A DNA stretch of 64,000 nt, taken from sequence record PP400780; one strand, written 5' to 3'. The notes beneath the pieces are model-generated. The model saw only the letters and a list, made by a program, of their open reading frames with translations. It did not search any database and was not told where the DNA came from. Made by a program: the position numbers and the translations under genes. This document shows, in pieces, positions 2,683 to 48,878 of this stretch. Source of the stretch: Escherichia phage FL18. The first letter of the stretch is position 1. Every line of letters begins with the position of its first letter.

Positions 2683-3684
2683 ATGAGTAAATTGGAGAAT
2701 AAAATGTTCAACGTTCAAATCAAAAAAGGTATCTATCGTAATAACGAAATCTCTGGTTCTTATGTTGCCACAAAGACCTGGTTCCCGGCAAAGCTTAATC
2801 CTGAATGTTCCCACTTAGGTGATGGTAAAATTTTCGTTATGATTGATGGTTCTGAACGTGGAGTATGGGTCTTCAAATCAGACATCATAATGGAAGGAGT
2901 TGAGACATCGCCAGTTGCAGTTGTTGAAAGCACTGAAGATATGAAAACTCGTATCAACAAACGCTTTAAAGTAATGAACATGATGACGAATGGCATTATC
3001 GATGGCAAAATTCGTTCACTCATTATTTCAGGTGCAGCTGGTATTGGTAAGACGTATTCTCTGGATAAAGCACTTAATAATGCTAATGATAACGGTTTCA
3101 TCAAATACAAAAGCATTAATGGTAAAATCTCTGGTATTGGCCTTTACGAACAACTTTGGCCCAACCGTGATGCAGACAGCGTTCTCTTAATCGACGACGT
3201 TGACGTATTCTCAGATATGGACATCTTGAACCTTCTTAAAGCAGCATTAGATACCGGAGATAAACGCAAAGTTTGTTGGAGCACTGCGTCATCTTATCTC
3301 GACGATAAGGGTATTGATAAAGAATTTGAGTTTGAAGGTACTATCGTTTTCATTACAAACGTTGATATCGATAAAGAGTTAGAACGCGGTTCTAAACTTG
3401 CTCCACACCTTCAAGCTTTAGTATCTCGTTCAGTGTATCTCGACCTTGGAGTACACTCTAATGAAGAGATTATGGTTCGAGTTGAAGATGTAATATTATC
3501 TACTGACATGATGCAGAAACGTGGTCTGACGGATGCAGAAACGTATAAAGCATTGTCCTGGATGAAGGCTAACGTATCTCGTCTTCGCAATGTATCATTA
3601 CGTACGGCTCTTTATGTAGCAGATTTTATTTCAACTGATAAAGATGGTTGGGAAGAAATCTCGGAAGTTACTTTACTGAAATAA
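2683..3684 (+). CDS. P-loop NTPase (AAA-like ATPase)
   Basis: Walker A GAAGIGKT and Walker B-like LLIDDVD in translation. Confidence 0.55.
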   Translation: MSKLENKMFNVQIKKGIYRNNEISGSYVATKTWFPAKLNPECSHLGDGKIFVMIDGSERGVWVFKSDIIMEGVETSPVAVVESTEDMKTRINKRFKVMNMMTNGIIDGKIRSLIISGAAGIGKTYSLDKALNNANDNGFIKYKSINGKISGIGLYEQLWPNRDADSVLLIDDVDVFSDMDILNLLKAALDTGDKRKVCWSTASSYLDDKGIDKEFEFEGTIVFITNVDIDKELERGSKLAPHLQALVSRSVYLDLGVHSNEEIMVRVEDVILSTDMMQKRGLTDAETYKALSWMKANVSRLRNVSLRTALYVADFISTDKDGWEEISEVTLLK

Positions 3685-3822
3685 GCTTATAGGAAGTTCT
3701 GAGGTAACAAAAGCCATAAAGATGAATAATCATATGGCTTACCTCAAAGAAGGACACCAGGAACCTACTGAGGGCATAGAAATATTTAAAAATAATGATG
3801 TACAAATCAAAGAGGATATGTT

Positions 3823-4110
3823 ATGGATTTTATGCAAAAAATTAAAGCCGCAGTCGAACTCTATGCTCATCGTATGGTTAGTTCTACAATGCAATATAGC
3901 GAGGAGGTTCGCCAGGACTCTTCCTTGAAAGGAAAAACTAAAGCCTTAATTACCTTAGATCGTTTGCAAAAGAATGCTATAGAGATGCTCCAGTACGACA
4001 AGGGTGTATATAAGAAAGAGCAGGAAGAGAAACTTAAATCTGAAAAATTACAAAAAATCCCGAAGTCTGTTTGGTTCAGTGGAAAAAATACCGAAAAAAG
4101 TTTCTTTTAG
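3823..4110 (+). CDS. hypothetical protein (95 aa)
   Basis: ORF with GAGGA SD 6 nt upstream of ATG. Confidence 0.45.
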   Translation: MDFMQKIKAAVELYAHRMVSSTMQYSEEVRQDSSLKGKTKALITLDRLQKNAIEMLQYDKGVYKKEQEEKLKSEKLQKIPKSVWFSGKNTEKSFF

Positions 4111-4150
4111 TTGTTTACAAGGTCTATGGTTATGTTATTATAGACCTATC
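4111..4150 (+). promoter_or_regulatory. T4-type early promoter with stem-loop-embedded -10 (GGTCTA ... TAGACC)
   Basis: ttgtttacaaggtctatggttatgttattatagacctatc; inverted repeat GGTCTA/TAGACC flanks the -10. Confidence 0.5.
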
Positions 4151-4168
4151 AACTACTGGAGGTAAAAC

Positions 4169-4696
4169 ATGAACGCTAAAGATATTTTCAACCTGGTAAA
4201 TTATAACGACGGTAAATTTAAATCTGAAGCACAAAGTAAGTTCTTTAATGACATTGCTTATGGTAATGAGATTACCGTGGACGGAGGTCAGATTTTCAAA
4301 TCTCGCTGGAATTGGATTGTTATCATAGATTCAGTTGGAATTGTTGAAGTCTACAAAAACACTAACAAAAAACGTACATTATTCTGGTCTCGTGAAACTA
4401 ACGAGCAGTACAAAAAGGATAAAGCATCTCGTTTATCCAAAGTAACCCAGGAAGATATCGAGTTTATCAAGAAAGATATCGAGATGTACGAAAATTTAAT
4501 TGCTGAAGACCAGGCAGTACTCGATAAGTTTGATGAAATTAAAGCTTCTCGTGAAATCCCTGACTTCATGAAAGAAACAGTAAACGAACGATACGCTCTC
4601 ACTTCAGAACGTATTGCAAACTATACAAAACAGAAAGCAGAACGTATTAGTACTCTTCGGAAATTTGAAGAACGTTTAAAGACGGTTCACGCATAA
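4169..4696 (+). CDS. hypothetical protein (175 aa)
   Basis: ORF with GGAGG SD upstream. Confidence 0.5.
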   Translation: MNAKDIFNLVNYNDGKFKSEAQSKFFNDIAYGNEITVDGGQIFKSRWNWIVIIDSVGIVEVYKNTNKKRTLFWSRETNEQYKKDKASRLSKVTQEDIEFIKKDIEMYENLIAEDQAVLDKFDEIKASREIPDFMKETVNERYALTSERIANYTKQKAERISTLRKFEERLKTVHA

Positions 4697-4758
4697 ACGC
4701 TTTACCCAAGGACGGGTTATAATGGTTTTGAGTTCCAATTCAATCTGAGGAAATAGTT

Positions 4759-5754
4759 ATGAGCATTACATCTTATGCGGTAAAACATGAAATTAACGGT
4801 TTATGTGCTTCACAGATTAAAGTGTGGTTTAAAGACCATAATGATCGCAGAGCACTTAATTATGAACAAATTGCTATCCAAGTTCATCAATTACTGGTTA
4901 GTAAATTTGATTTTCATATGCCGTCTGAAATCTATACTAATCTACCGCGAGCGCTTATTAAAGCGTGTAAAGGTTATGGAAAATCAATGGCTGATGGAAT
5001 CTTCAGCGCGCTGAATAAACTTAACGTTCTGTCGATGATTAACTCTAACAATATCCTGCGTAATTTAGGACGTACTGATTTGTTCGGTCGTGAACAGGGT
5101 AAAATGCCTTTGAAATGGATTGTTGCTCATCTTAACGAGAACCAAACACGTTTTCTGGCTGTATCAGCACGTTTACAAATGGGCCTAGATCGTCAGATGA
5201 ACTTTAAAACTCATCCACGTTATTCAGGTTCAACAGACTTTTATAAATGTGAGCTTCAAAAGGTCGGTGGCAAAACTGTCTTAGTAGTTCGTGTAACTTT
5301 TGAAGGACGACGTCAAGGATATTTTAACCTAATTGGCTCTGGTCTTAAACATTGCGGATTTATCGACGAAGTTGATATCAAGCGAGACGGCATTGGATAT
5401 CGTATTGGATATGTTTGTACTCTTAAAGAAGAGATTTTAGGCCCGATCCCAGGACTAAAAGACGTTAGATATAAAGACGAGCTCGTTGAAGAAATAAAAG
5501 AAGTTGAATATGATATCAACCAAGAAGATGCTCTTAAAGACCTTATTGATGAACTAAACCAAGACGTTATTCCGGTTCAGAAATTTGAATCAAAACATGC
5601 TGAGCAAATCAAATACTTTGAAGCTTTGATTAACGAACTTAATGTAACTATTCAACAGACTGACGATGAAATCTCACGATTAGCAGGCTTAAACGGTAAA
5701 AATAAAACAGAACGAGCTAATCTTATTCAAGTAGTAAAACTTCTTAAGGAATGA
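4759..5754 (+). CDS. hypothetical protein with C-terminal coiled-coil-like region
   Basis: 331-aa ORF preceded by promoter-like TTTACCC...TATAAT at 4698-4723. Confidence 0.5.
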   Translation: MSITSYAVKHEINGLCASQIKVWFKDHNDRRALNYEQIAIQVHQLLVSKFDFHMPSEIYTNLPRALIKACKGYGKSMADGIFSALNKLNVLSMINSNNILRNLGRTDLFGREQGKMPLKWIVAHLNENQTRFLAVSARLQMGLDRQMNFKTHPRYSGSTDFYKCELQKVGGKTVLVVRVTFEGRRQGYFNLIGSGLKHCGFIDEVDIKRDGIGYRIGYVCTLKEEILGPIPGLKDVRYKDELVEEIKEVEYDINQEDALKDLIDELNQDVIPVQKFESKHAEQIKYFEALINELNVTIQQTDDEISRLAGLNGKNKTERANLIQVVKLLKE

Positions 5755-5811
5755 TGTACAACCAAGGATGGTTGGAGTATAATGAATCTATCTTAACGAG
5801 AGGAAAATATT

Positions 5812-6765
5812 ATGACACGTTCACATTACATTGATTATTTTGCAGGTCTTATCGCTAACGTTCATGCCCAACGTGCTTCTGGTTCATTAGGATTTGATGT
5901 TCCACACCGAGTTGTAGTAAGTGGTATTCTTCGCGATTTTGGTACATACACAGGCCAAGAAAATCATATCTGTAAAGATACTCAGAATGCGTATTCTCAT
6001 TCATTAGGGACACTGCTTCAATGGTTCAAACGTTCTCGTTTATTATCTTCGACTGTAGCTCGCGATAACATTAAAAACTTTATGAAGCCGAGCTTTATTA
6101 AATCTGCGACATCTAAAACCGATTTGGTTGAATTCACTATTGTTAATGATGTTAAAAAGACTCATTTGGCTGATTGGTTATCTACCATTCCTGAAACTAA
6201 ATTTGCTGATAAATTTGCTTGTGAATTCAATAACCAAGTGAATATGCTTTTTAAACATTCTCGTAAATTATTTACAGGTGGCGATGGTCGTACAAATAAA
6301 GTTCATGCTAAAGATTGGGTTACTGCAGTATTCAAACCAACCGGTAATGGTAACGCATCATTGTCAATTGATATCCAGGTTCCTTATTACTACTCACGTA
6401 ATCTCGGTACCATGAAAGCCGAAGAAATTAATAAGCGCAACAAAACCGTTCGTTCGCTGTCTTATAAACTTTGTACGATGTTACAGATTATGGATGTTGT
6501 TGAAATGTTCGACGAAACCGAAGATAACGGTTCAATGTTATTCAGTTCTAATATTCGAATTAAGCTGAAGAACCCTAATACATATAAACCTAAGCCTATT
6601 AAAGAACCTAAAGTAGAAAAAGTTGATAACTTAAGAGAAGAACGCGAATATCTCAAATCTCGTCTGAAAGAAGTCGAAGCCCAGATTGCAGAACAGACTA
6701 AATCGTTAAAAGCTCTGAATGCGAAAGCGGATGGTTTACGAAATGCCATTGAGGTATTGAAATGA
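5812..6765 (+). CDS. hypothetical protein with C-terminal coiled-coil-like region
   Basis: 317-aa ORF with GAGG SD; preceded by GTACAACCAAGGATGGTTGGAGTATAAT promoter cassette. Confidence 0.5.
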   Translation: MTRSHYIDYFAGLIANVHAQRASGSLGFDVPHRVVVSGILRDFGTYTGQENHICKDTQNAYSHSLGTLLQWFKRSRLLSSTVARDNIKNFMKPSFIKSATSKTDLVEFTIVNDVKKTHLADWLSTIPETKFADKFACEFNNQVNMLFKHSRKLFTGGDGRTNKVHAKDWVTAVFKPTGNGNASLSIDIQVPYYYSRNLGTMKAEEINKRNKTVRSLSYKLCTMLQIMDVVEMFDETEDNGSMLFSSNIRIKLKNPNTYKPKPIKEPKVEKVDNLREEREYLKSRLKEVEAQIAEQTKSLKALNAKADGLRNAIEVLK

Positions 6766-46099: not shown

Positions 46100-46777
46100 A
46101 TGAGCACTGATGTTATTATAGATTTTGAAACATTCGGCAATACATCAAAAGCGGCTGTTATTGACCTTGCGGTTATTGCATATAATTCAGACCCTGAAGT
46201 TGTTGAATCATTTGAAGAACTTGTTCAACGAGGTAAGCGAATTAAATTTAATTTAGCTTCTCAAAAAGGGAAGCGAGTTTTCGCTAAATCCACTATGAAA
46301 TGGTGGAAAGAACAATCAGCAGAAGCACGTAAAAACCTGGCCCCGTCTGAAGACGATGTCACTACGCTTGAAGGCATTAAAATCTTTTTAGACTATTGCC
46401 GAGCTAATAAAGTTGACCAATGGAAATCACAGATGTGGTGCCGTGGTATGAGCTTTGACTTCCCGATCTTGGTCGATTTGATTCGTGACCTCTATCGTGA
46501 TGAAGGTGTTCTTGAACCAGATATTGATACTGATAAATTAGAACCTGTTAAATTCTGGGCTCAACGTGATATTCGTACGGCAATCGAAGCTTACTCGTTG
46601 ACACGAGGAGTAAGTATGTGTCCATTACCGATGGGTACGCTAAAAGGATTCGTTGCCCATGATAGTATTCATGATTGTGCTAAAGATATTTTGATGTTAA
46701 AATATGCTCAGCGTTATGCGCTTGGCCTTGAAGATGTCCCTGAGAATCCTGACCCGTTAAGTGTAAAACAGCGATAA
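46100..46777 (+). CDS. dexA: exonuclease A (DexA-like 3'-5' exonuclease)
   Basis: 225 aa; N-terminal IIDFETFG (DEDD-type motif) ; synteny after dda. Confidence 0.7.
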   Translation: MSTDVIIDFETFGNTSKAAVIDLAVIAYNSDPEVVESFEELVQRGKRIKFNLASQKGKRVFAKSTMKWWKEQSAEARKNLAPSEDDVTTLEGIKIFLDYCRANKVDQWKSQMWCRGMSFDFPILVDLIRDLYRDEGVLEPDIDTDKLEPVKFWAQRDIRTAIEAYSLTRGVSMCPLPMGTLKGFVAHDSIHDCAKDILMLKYAQRYALGLEDVPENPDPLSVKQR

Positions 46778-46781
46778 AATC

Positions 46782-46813
46782 AGTTTACAACCAAGGACGG
46801 TTGGAGTATAATC
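46782..46813 (+). promoter_or_regulatory. T4-type early promoter cassette GTTTACAACCAAGGACGGTTGGAGTATAAT
   Basis: near-identical copies at 5755-5783 and 47339-47371. Confidence 0.55.
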
Positions 46814-46843
46814 TTTCTATCTTAACCAAACAGGAAAAACATT

Positions 46844-47338
46844 ATGAATATCAATACTACGGCTACTTACATCCTGAAAGACGAAAAACAAATTAACTGG
46901 TATGGTGCTTCAGTGCGAGCTTATGAAAAGTTTTGTGAAATTTTAGGTGCCACTCAAGGTAATAGTTTCACTATTGTTAACTTCATCAAACAAGCTGAAG
47001 GCCCTTGGTTATTCTTAGAAATTAAAAATTCATATGGTACAATTTCTACTACCGCCCTTCCAAGCACCGACTTTGAACTGTTGATTGAAGAAGTAGAACC
47101 CGTTAAAGATATCTGTATTGATATGGATATCGCTTGTATGTACGGTACTCTGATTAAGCCTATTGAGCCTACTGATTTGTTGTGTAAAGCTGTTTCAATT
47201 CGACGTCCGTTCGCAGGTCCAGTAAATGGATGGGTGACTGATCAGTGGATTGAAGACGGTGTTGAACTTCTGAACGTTGTTCATGCAGGTGATTTTAGTG
47301 TAGTTCCACGTAGTGCTGTGGTTAATATCCTTAATTAA
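46844..47338 (+). CDS. hypothetical protein, member 1 of tandem paralog family
   Basis: C-terminus DQWIEDGVELLNVVHAGDFSVVP shared with two downstream ORFs. Confidence 0.55.
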   Translation: MNINTTATYILKDEKQINWYGASVRAYEKFCEILGATQGNSFTIVNFIKQAEGPWLFLEIKNSYGTISTTALPSTDFELLIEEVEPVKDICIDMDIACMYGTLIKPIEPTDLLCKAVSIRRPFAGPVNGWVTDQWIEDGVELLNVVHAGDFSVVPRSAVVNILN

Positions 47339-47372
47339 TGTTGTACATCCAAGGATGGATGGAGTATAATGA
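47338..47372 (+). promoter_or_regulatory. T4-type early promoter cassette GTTGTACATCCAAGGATGGATGGAGTATAAT
   Basis: copy of the 46782 cassette. Confidence 0.5.
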
Positions 47373-47400
47373 ATTCAACTTAAACAAAGAGAGAAAAATT

Positions 47401-47865
47401 ATGATTACTATTGGTGAAATTAAGCGTGTATCAACTGCATCCCGTTCTAAAGCCGCAGGTCGTCTGGTTGAAGTTGTCGGACTTCGCACAAATGGCATGG
47501 GACGTATTAAAGAAGTTAAAGTTCGAATCATTCCTAGTTTTGGACGTCAGGATACTCAGTACGCTTACGTAAGTCCTAAATTCTTGGAAACTCGTGTAAG
47601 TGCCCACTTTGCTTCAAGCGATATCGTTGAGCCTACTACACAGTTCAAATGGGCCCTTTGCAAAGGTGTTGAATTCCAGACTGATAAAGAATTTGACTTC
47701 ATCGATGAATACGGTTATCCAAGCAAAACTGATACTATGTGTGGCTTTATTAGTGACCAATGGGTTGAAGATGGTGAAAAGTTATACAATATCGTATTCT
47801 TAGGTGACTTCCGAGTTGTTAAAGAATCTGAAATCACTCGCTATGTGTCTCCTCGTAAAGCTTAA
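47401..47865 (+). CDS. hypothetical protein, member 2 of tandem paralog family
   Basis: ATG at 47401; C-terminus DQWVEDGEKLYNIVFLGDFRVV. Confidence 0.55.
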   Translation: MITIGEIKRVSTASRSKAAGRLVEVVGLRTNGMGRIKEVKVRIIPSFGRQDTQYAYVSPKFLETRVSAHFASSDIVEPTTQFKWALCKGVEFQTDKEFDFIDEYGYPSKTDTMCGFISDQWVEDGEKLYNIVFLGDFRVVKESEITRYVSPRKA

Positions 47866-47874
47866 GGAATTATT

Positions 47875-48294
47875 ATGAATATTGTAAATCTCTCTACAGG
47901 TGATTACGTATATGTATCTGTTGCTTCTCGCTCTAAAGTTGCCGGGAAGTTGGTTGAAGTTCTTTCTGTGAGTGATCCGGTTTTTGGACGTAACGAAGTT
48001 AAAGTTCGTGATGCTGATGGTAACATTGGTTACGTTAAAAGCCAATTCATTGAACCAGAAGAAAAAGCGTTCAAATGGGGACTATGCAGATCAGTTTCTG
48101 TTGAAAAAGACCATGAATTCACTATTGCTGCGGCAACTGATGGAACACCGTGGAAAACTAAGCAAATCGCCGGATTTATTAGCGACCGTTGGGTAGAAGA
48201 TGGTGTTAAGCTTTATAACATCGTTTTCGCTGGTCAGTTCATGGTAGTTCCTGAATTCCAAATTAAAAAATATAGCCCAGCTGCTTTCGCATAA
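47875..48294 (+). CDS. hypothetical protein, member 3 of tandem paralog family
   Basis: C-terminus DRWVEDGVKLYNIVFAGQFMVVP; N-terminal VSVASRSKVAGKLVEV similar to member 2. Confidence 0.55.
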   Translation: MNIVNLSTGDYVYVSVASRSKVAGKLVEVLSVSDPVFGRNEVKVRDADGNIGYVKSQFIEPEEKAFKWGLCRSVSVEKDHEFTIAAATDGTPWKTKQIAGFISDRWVEDGVKLYNIVFAGQFMVVPEFQIKKYSPAAFA

Positions 48295-48296
48295 AA

Positions 48297-48348
48297 TTGT
48301 TTACTTCTCCTCTGGTTTTGATATTATAACCATATCAACCAGAGGAGA
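48297..48348 (+). promoter_or_regulatory. T4-type early promoter with -10 flanked by perfect 11-bp inverted repeat (CTCCTCTGGTT / AACCAGAGGAG)
   Basis: ttgtttacttctcctctggttttgatattataaccatatcaaccagaggag; 3' arm contains the SD. Confidence 0.55.
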
Positions 48349-48353
48349 ATAAT

Positions 48354-48878
48354 ATGTTAGTTTACCGCGTAGAACGTAGTTTTTGTACTCAACGTGAATC
48401 ATTACCAGGAATTGCTATCGAAGACGGTAAAGCCGTCAGAATTTGGGAAACCTCTTGGAATAAAGAACCTCGCTCGCCATACGGTTGGTCGGGTGCCGAC
48501 AACTCTGAAGAAACATGGGAGTTCCTTGATAAACATGGAATAATCTCAGGTAACTTCTACCATCACGGCGACAACTATAATGTCCCTAATCGTCCTACAG
48601 TAAATGAAGACAAACTCCTTGAACAAAATATCTTAAGATACTATAGAATTGAGCACGCATTTGAATTGAGTGAAGATTGGGCTCAAGGGTTCTATTTTGG
48701 ATTTGAAAGTGTTGACGCGGTTTATGCATGGTTTGATGACCAGGTGGATGTTGAACTCTTGAAAGCTAAAGGATACTACATCGCGGTCTATGAAGCACCT
48801 GATTTCATCCTCGGAAGTTGTCAATTAATGTTTAGACGTTCATTGGCAGAACAAGTTGATTTTATTTTGCTAAAATGA
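48354..48878 (+). CDS. hypothetical protein (174 aa)
   Basis: ORF-track entry. Confidence 0.5.
   Translation: MLVYRVERSFCTQRESLPGIAIEDGKAVRIWETSWNKEPRSPYGWSGADNSEETWEFLDKHGIISGNFYHHGDNYNVPNRPTVNEDKLLEQNILRYYRIEHAFELSEDWAQGFYFGFESVDAVYAWFDDQVDVELLKAKGYYIAVYEAPDFILGSCQLMFRRSLAEQVDFILLK

Follow-up and report, generated by a model that had tools for sequence, protein, structure and literature searches.

The three consecutive open reading frames (ORF1, ORF2 and ORF3) that follow dexA in Escherichia phage FL18 (PP400780; "the window" hereafter means the whole stretch of 64,000 nucleotides (nt) analysed) have their closest described counterparts in motB.1 and motB of the phages T4 and RB69. T4 MotB is a toxic protein with non-specific binding to modified as well as unmodified DNA; it copurifies with H-NS and StpA and causes a doubling of the burst size (PMC6070864). 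It changes the H-NS footprint and about 75 host genes are upregulated, about one third of which belong to the H-NS regulon, its mode of action being co-binding of DNA and not direct binding of H-NS (PMC7827196). In the same study (Patterson-West et al. 2021, Viruses 13:84, PMC7827196), 102 phage homologs were aligned, residues 69-149 of MotB were assigned by HHpred to the cold-shock/eIF5A-C OB-fold family, MotB and MotB.1 were described as sharing a C-terminal domain, and RB69 was shown to have two motB genes and one motB.1; the proteins of RB69, PhAPEC2 and Shf125875 are contained in its supplementary table. The N-terminal domain of MotB.1 has been published as an LSm-like fold, which is common to GoF and Frd.2 (Kim et al. 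2025, PMC12152347).

We estimate a probability of about 85% that the cluster of FL18 represents the motB.1-motB-motB' early genes of a T-even phage related to RB69 (genus Mosigvirus), with MotB-type functions that are extrapolated from T4. Over a 3-kb stretch, identities of 97-98% were obtained with many Mosigvirus genomes (e.g., vB_EQ1, PhAPEC2 and moskry), and the window therefore belongs to an RB69-like T-even phage. The same genes carry a MotB-like annotation in Mosigvirus genomes, and the equivalent of ORF1 in PhAPEC2 is labelled 'similar to MotB.1'. The cluster is flanked by srd, dda.1, dda and dexA upstream and by a motB.2 homolog, cef, goF and gene 39 downstream, a synteny (srd-dda.1-dda-dexA-[motB.1, motB, motB', motB.2]-cef-goF-39) that is paralleled in RB69, T4 and PhAPEC2. 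The initial annotation, made from the letters of the window, had recognized three consecutive ORFs of 164, 154 and 139 amino acids (aa) behind dexA, and these were confirmed on the plus strand at the lengths given.

In RB69 the cluster motB.1/motB/RB69ORF010c comprises the same genes in the same order and in the same genus, with identities of 97% for ORF3 and 89% for ORF2; the motB.1 of the RB69 reference is split in two, whereas that of the window is intact (164 aa). With T4 MotB (NP_049626; PF17613; phrog_1671), ORF2 and ORF3 share a near-full profile match, the arrangement in two domains, the invariant motifs (SRSK-AG-VE, EVKVR, FKW-L and D-W-E-G-KLYN-VF), the position between dexA and cef/goF, and a predicted early-type promoter. 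However, T4 has one motB and FL18 two tandem copies, which are 46% (ORF2) and 38.5% (ORF3) identical to T4 MotB, and ORF3, unlike T4 MotB, is shortened and not basic. ORF1 is 46.9% identical to the intact 143-aa form of T4 MotB.1 (NP_049627; phrog_2333; one of the Tevenvirinae LSm-like early proteins, PMC12152347), and both have a beta-rich N-terminal domain followed by a MotB-type C-terminal domain and are located directly upstream of motB. They differ in a linker insert of ~23 residues (DMDIACMYGTLIKP...), which is present in ORF1 and lacking in T4 MotB.1.

Two MotB copies and a domain-sharing neighbour

The Pfam profile PF17613 ('motB, modifier of transcription'; gathering cut-off 25 bits) matched ORF2 with 129.8 bits (E=1.1e-37) over profile positions 2-157 of 162 and ORF3 with 77.2 bits (E=1.7e-21). 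ORF1 reached 35.5 bits over aa 84-159 only, corresponding to profile positions 78-153, i.e., the C-terminal domain. Both ORF2 (E=7.6e-65) and ORF3 (E=1.3e-51) belong to phrog_1671 ('MotB-like transcriptional regulator'); ORF1 matched phrog_2333 over its full length (residues 1-164, E=8.6e-83) and aligned end to end with MotB.1 homologs of 143-169 aa. ORF1 is MotB.1, ORF2 is MotB, ORF3 is a second MotB (the equivalent of RB69ORF010c), and the next gene encodes MotB.2, the sequence of which is unrelated.

Pairwise comparisons (BLASTP) revealed that ORF2 and ORF3 are 43% identical over 148 columns, essentially their whole length (E=1e-32), which bears out an N-terminal block common to these two members. 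ORF1 aligned with ORF2 in its last 36 residues only (44% identity, E=2e-10) and with ORF3 over residues 93-155 against 48-126 (E=5e-11). With clean domain profiles (hhalign), the ORF1 family and the ORF2/ORF3 family matched in their C-terminal domains over 48 columns (probability 98.9%, E=3e-17), whereas homology between their N-terminal domains was not detectable (probability 0.4%). A block at the C-terminus of all three proteins, as described in the initial annotation, is thus upheld by significant similarity in every pair; the tandem triplication that had been proposed there is not, since only ORF2 and ORF3 are paralogs as whole genes and ORF1 shares a C-terminal domain of ~50 residues alone. 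Because its N-terminal domain has no detectable relation to that of MotB, ORF1 is a relative through the C-terminal domain and not a full member of the MotB family. The cluster is a tandem duplication (ORF2, ORF3) plus a domain-sharing neighbour (ORF1). A first whole-length profile-profile alignment had run nearly end to end; it was rejected, because the ORF1-family set included four proteins whose N-terminal domain is of the KOW type (P0158, P0164, P0171 and P0174), which contaminated the N-terminal profile.

The domain boundaries are listed in Table 1. ORF2 and ORF3 carry the N-terminal motif SRSKAAG-x-VEV ... EVKVR, the columns of which are invariant in an alignment of 25 sequences, and the C-terminal motif FKW-L ... 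I(S/T)DQWVEDG-KLYN-VF is present in all three proteins. Two stretches of ORF2 are missing from ORF3, one of ~7 residues in a hairpin of the N-terminal domain and one of ~13 residues in the linker. The linker insert of ORF1 contains ICIDMDIACMYGTLIKP, a motif that in other family members (P0139, P0157 and P0129) was observed at the very start of the protein, as if it were a mobile short peptide module.

AlphaFold2 (AF2) models predicted two beta-rich domains, with N-terminal strands at residues 7-57 of ORF2 and a five-stranded barrel as the C-terminal domain, connected by a linker of low confidence (predicted local distance difference test, pLDDT, <50; mean pLDDT 81 for ORF2 and 79 for ORF1). 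Structural matches of the models were SH3/Tudor/KOW-like barrels, and the 60 best matches listed contained no OB fold. A fold search of BFVD gave convincing E-values only for relatives from T4-like phages and no match of known function, and the ORF2 sequence retrieved nothing meaningful from the PDB (best E=0.49, a terpene synthase). The charge of ORF2 is split, with an isoelectric point (pI) of 10.6 in the N-terminal and 4.7 in the C-terminal domain. ORF1 has a pI of 4.5 throughout. In both of these proteins the shared C-terminal domain is acidic; ORF3 is near neutral (pI 6.6 overall, 6.2 in the N-terminal domain). Models and charge together suggest that the shared C-terminal domain may be an SH3/Tudor-like module and that DNA binding would reside in the N-terminal domain.

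The family is widely distributed among phages. A tblastn search with ORF3 found 973 places in 761 phage records. The ORF3-type gene itself (at least 80% identity) occurs in ~207 records, including some Tequatroviruses such as RB6, and all listed records of this kind except Kelasse have a second motB place. ORF1 matched 739 records, 308 of which cover at least 80% of the query.

Purifying selection and exchange of domains

Since synonymous divergence (dS) is saturated between ORF2 and ORF3 at 43% amino-acid identity, the ratio of non-synonymous to synonymous substitutions (dN/dS) of the paralogs was dropped and orthologs were compared instead. We assembled 9-14 orthologs per gene from Mosigvirus genomes among the GenBank phage records, added two Tequatroviruses for the motB copies, and calculated pairwise Nei-Gojobori estimates; a search of IMG/VR for related loci yielded 3 loci. 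The dN/dS was 0.03 for dexA, 0.11 for ORF1, 0.24 for ORF2, 0.15 for ORF3 and 0.11 for motB.2. All five genes are under purifying selection, and "diversifying", if understood as positive selection, is not supported for the three ORFs.

The two motB copies have a mean dS of 0.39 compared to 0.08 in the flanking dexA and motB.2, a ~5-fold difference. The N-terminal domain of ORF2 falls into classes with ~96-99%, ~85-90% and ~65% nucleotide identity to the window, and for its C-terminal domain this identity is 93-99% among the Mosigvirus orthologs. The domains of ORF3 also vary independently (AV115: N-terminal 96%, C-terminal 83%; IMGVR_2974739009: N-terminal 87%, C-terminal 97%), and the identities of the N- and C-terminal domains are uncoupled among phages that are otherwise ~97% identical. 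Natural chimeras were identified as well: P0035 combines an ORF2-type N-terminal with an ORF3-type C-terminal domain, P0099 a T4-MotB N-terminal with an ORF3-type C-terminal domain, and the four proteins that had contaminated the ORF1-family profile have a MotB.1-type C-terminal domain behind a KOW-type N-terminal domain. In total, the MotB.1-type C-terminal domain is joined to several N-termini, in proteins of 143-169, 177-183 and 245-250 aa. These chimeras show that domain types are freely shuffled among T4-like phages. Because dN/dS is low, divergence is block-wise and chimeras exist, we attribute the diversity to modular recombination and not to positive selection: the family evolves by duplication plus recombinational swapping of domain-sized old alleles, with no detectable positive selection.

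Reference copies of motB.1 and features of the locus

The annotated T4 MotB.1 (NP_049627, 119 aa) ends with '...DQWIGRWR*', one extra G in the reference record depriving it of 29 conserved residues at the C-terminus; the conserved 'EDGVELLNVVHAGEYSVVPRSAVVAILN' is intact in the next frame. The truncated gene lies at 4219-4651 of T4 NC_000866.4 (minus strand), and the stretch for comparison in KJ477684 is 598-1029. A 50-mer with the extra G was found only in AF158101.6 and NC_000866.4, and the 49-mer without it matched 119 records, 13 of them at 100% identity; these 119 comprise at least 11 further genome records of T4 (T4T HM137666, KJ477684-6, MT984581, MZ375356, OL964735/45, OZ209023/57 and OZ035787). 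The intact 143-aa MotB.1 (P0111) was found on 256 contigs. In the RB69 reference (NC_004928, 3377-3873, minus strand), two separate 1-bp insertions divide motB.1 into a 132-aa ORF and the 29-aa RB69ORF012c, which is the displaced C-terminus of RB69 MotB.1 and corresponds to the 'Category 3 peptide' of the 2021 phylogeny (PMC7827196). An intact 164-aa motB.1 is present in the window and in more than 100 other Mosigvirus records. Both truncations look like single-base sequence errors. Programmed frameshifting at these breaks was considered and rejected, in T4 because the extra G is confined to AF158101/NC_000866 and absent from at least 11 other T4 records, and in RB69 because two different 1-bp insertions are involved, neither of which occurs in relatives. 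Kim et al. 2025 (PMC12152347) obtained their motB.1 plasmids by gene synthesis, cited NC_000866.4 as the reference and gave 13.8 kDa for the monomer, and we infer that the MotB.1 tested there was the truncated 119-aa form.

Table 1. Features of the motB.1-motB-motB' locus and related sites (window coordinates)
Feature	Position	Strand	Description
dexA	46100-46777		adjoins the three-ORF cluster on its upstream side
P1	46784-46812	+	promoter-like, sigma-70-type early; TTTACA-17-TATAAT; consensus scan 11/12; upstream of ORF1
54-nt direct repeat	46786-46839 and 47344-47397		promoter/leader cassette; 76% identity between copies
ORF1 (motB.1)	46844-47338	+	164 aa
ORF1, N-terminal domain			aa 1-85
ORF1, linker			aa 86-105; disordered
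ORF1, linker insert	47093-47161		aa ~84-106; ~23 residues; not in T4 MotB.1
ORF1, C-terminal domain	47159-47335		aa ~106-164; MotB-type
P2	47342-47370	+	promoter-like; TGTACA-17-TATAAT; consensus scan 10/12; upstream of ORF2
ORF2 (motB)	47401-47865	+	154 aa; ATG preceded by a Shine-Dalgarno sequence
ORF2, N-terminal domain	47401-47592		aa 1-64; basic, KOW/SH3-like; carries SRSKAAGRLVEV motif
ORF2, linker			aa 66-79; disordered
ORF2, C-terminal domain	47638-47862		aa 80-154; with DQWVEDGEKLYNIVF
ORF3 (motB', second motB)	47875-48294	+	139 aa
Promoter-like site	48300-48327		its -10 box falls within the hairpin
Hairpin	48305-48349	+	just 5' of the motB.2 homolog; -23.9 kcal/mol, z = -5.2; conserved
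motB.2 homolog	48354-48878		next gene 3' of ORF3
Third exact ACANCCAAGGANGGNTGGAGTATAAT copy	5758-5783	+	before an unrelated 317-aa ORF (5812-6765)

The mechanical reading frame of ORF2 opens at 47338; we placed its start at the ATG at 47401, because a Shine-Dalgarno sequence is present, P2 is located upstream and the N-terminus of T4 MotB (MIINIGE) is matched. That the first two ORFs each have a promoter cassette of their own was corroborated as far as sequence features are concerned (Table 1). The window contains three copies of the core motif ACANCCAAGGANGGNTGGAGTATAAT, against a chance expectation of 0. Given its conserved and unusual spacer, the cassette may represent a distinct sub-class among the early promoters, or it might have been spread by recombination. 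A promoter of its own was not found for ORF3 by the consensus scan; ORF3, which starts 9 nt behind the stop codon of ORF2, is presumably co-transcribed with it.

Gene order differs between the genera. RB69 has dexA, motB.1, the 29-aa ORF, motB, ORF010c ('similar to motB'), motB.2 and cef, and T4 has dexA, motB.2, motB.1, motB, cef and goF; motB.2 thus follows motB' in Mosigvirus (window 46844-48878) and precedes motB.1 in T4 (NC_000866.4, locus 3654-5162). In addition, dexA.1 and dexA.2 are missing between dda and dexA in Mosigvirus, phage AV115 lacks motB.1 entirely, and BYEP01 (locus 1456-1587) retains only a 43-aa ORF, the final 28 residues of which correspond to the C-terminal end of the shared domain in MotB.1. 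The hairpin in front of the motB.2 homolog contains the Shine-Dalgarno sequence of this gene (GAGGAG) in its 3' arm, so read-through transcripts from the motB promoter could mask the ribosome-binding site, whereas those initiated at the proximal promoter would be unable to do so. With no T-run behind it, the hairpin does not qualify as a typical terminator, and its sequence is nearly invariant across 8 phages, leaving no covariation to test.

Alternative readings and the proposed function

A reading that follows the initial annotation is that a single small gene underwent tandem triplication and that positive selection drives its copies apart, as members of a family for anti-defence or host takeover. 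The C-terminal block in all three ORFs, the near-identical promoter/leader cassettes at ORF1 and ORF2, which fit a duplicated unit, and the ~5-fold greater divergence of motB and motB' (synonymous as well as non-synonymous) compared to the flanking dexA and motB.2 are compatible with this scenario. We nevertheless consider it improbable, because the N-terminal 85 residues of ORF1 have no homology to ORF2 and ORF3 and belong to a separate PHROG, all dN/dS values of the cluster (0.11-0.24) indicate purifying selection, and the excess divergence is distributed block-wise by domain, as predicted by recombination between old alleles. The attribution to an early region and to host takeover remains supported, the latter by homology, since T4 MotB is toxic, binds DNA and alters H-NS binding; for anti-defence nothing was found beyond the link to H-NS, and no such activity of MotB is reported in the cited literature. 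None of the four proteins searched had a match in PADLOC, a result of little weight because PADLOC models represent defence and not anti-defence systems. It might also be argued that ORF3 is a redundant copy without a function of its own that decays towards a pseudogene, as it is shorter (139 aa), has lost the hairpin, part of the linker and the net positive charge of the N-terminal domain, and has no promoter of its own. To this we give hardly any credence: the reading frame is intact in 14 of 14 sequences with a dN/dS of 0.15, all family-invariant residues are retained, the ORF3-type gene is spread over its ~207 records across Mosigvirus and Tequatrovirus, and the only motB of Kelasse is of the ORF3 type. 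A duplicated motB next to a domain-sharing motB.1 remains our preferred interpretation of the cluster.

More credible, although we do not favour it, is the published model, which assigns an OB fold and DNA binding to the shared C-terminal domain; all three proteins, MotB.1 included, would then bind DNA or RNA through it and the N-terminal domains would modulate this binding. It draws on the HHpred assignment of MotB (PMC7827196), on the C-terminal domain, in which conservation within the family is highest, with invariant D-W-E-G-KLYN-VF, and on the five-stranded C-terminal barrel of the AF2 models, which would also fit an OB-like topology. The structural matches described above were SH3/Tudor/KOW-like barrels. 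Given the acidity of the C-terminal barrel in both ORF1 and ORF2, we read it as an interaction or oligomerisation module and not as a DNA binder.

If T4 MotB is a valid guide, the MotB copies of FL18 would be produced from sigma-70-type early promoters in the initial minutes of the infection, cover DNA irrespective of its sequence, shift H-NS on the DNA and derepress H-NS-silenced genes, and they might raise the burst size ~two-fold. ORF2 and ORF3 would consist of a KOW/SH3-like N-terminal barrel, a flexible linker and a small C-terminal beta-barrel, and ORF1 of a different, LSm-like N-terminal barrel fused to the same kind of C-terminal barrel. By our own interpretation, most of the DNA binding of ORF2 would be supplied by its basic N-terminal domain, and the C-terminal barrel might be a common interaction or oligomerisation module. 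To our knowledge, other H-NS antagonists of phages or plasmids (T7 gp5.5, T4 Arn and the Ler/VirB-type anti-silencers) have no sequence or fold relationship to MotB. The outcome proposed for MotB, an early relief or alteration of H-NS silencing, would be analogous to theirs (PMC7827196).

Several points weigh against transferring the T4 functions to FL18. DNA binding, toxicity and the H-NS effect would be extrapolated from T4 MotB across 46% (ORF2) and 38.5% (ORF3) identity; ORF3, which is near neutral and has a non-basic N-terminal domain, may not bind DNA as MotB does; P1 and P2 are matches to a consensus, from which the promoter function is deduced; and a T4 ΔmotB.1 mutant had no phenotype under laboratory conditions (PMC12152347). 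A more speculative idea, which we regard as doubtful, is that the C-terminal barrels of MotB, MotB' and MotB.1 are not DNA-binding OB folds but acidic Tudor/SH3-like modules that bind each other or one common partner, and that the cluster gives rise to a mixed early complex joining a DNA-coating arm (KOW-like) and an RNA- or protein-binding arm (LSm-like). The published negative results for T4 MotB.1 would then be uninformative, because the constructs were apparently made from a reference that truncates the C-terminal module.

As a discovery the cluster carries little weight, since the gene family, the RB69-type duplication and the domain shared by MotB and MotB.1 are already in the literature and covered by Pfam and PHROGs. 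Mildly new are structural matches of an SH3/Tudor-like and not an OB-like kind, the acidic character of the shared C-terminal domain, the mosaicism of domain cassettes, and the apparent errors in the reference sequences. The last of these concern work on T4 early genes, in which the annotated 119-aa MotB.1, without the most conserved part of its family, was apparently the form that was synthesised and tested. DNA binding by the N-terminal domain together with an SH3/Tudor-like C-terminal module, as suggested here, would alter which domain is chosen first for mutation.

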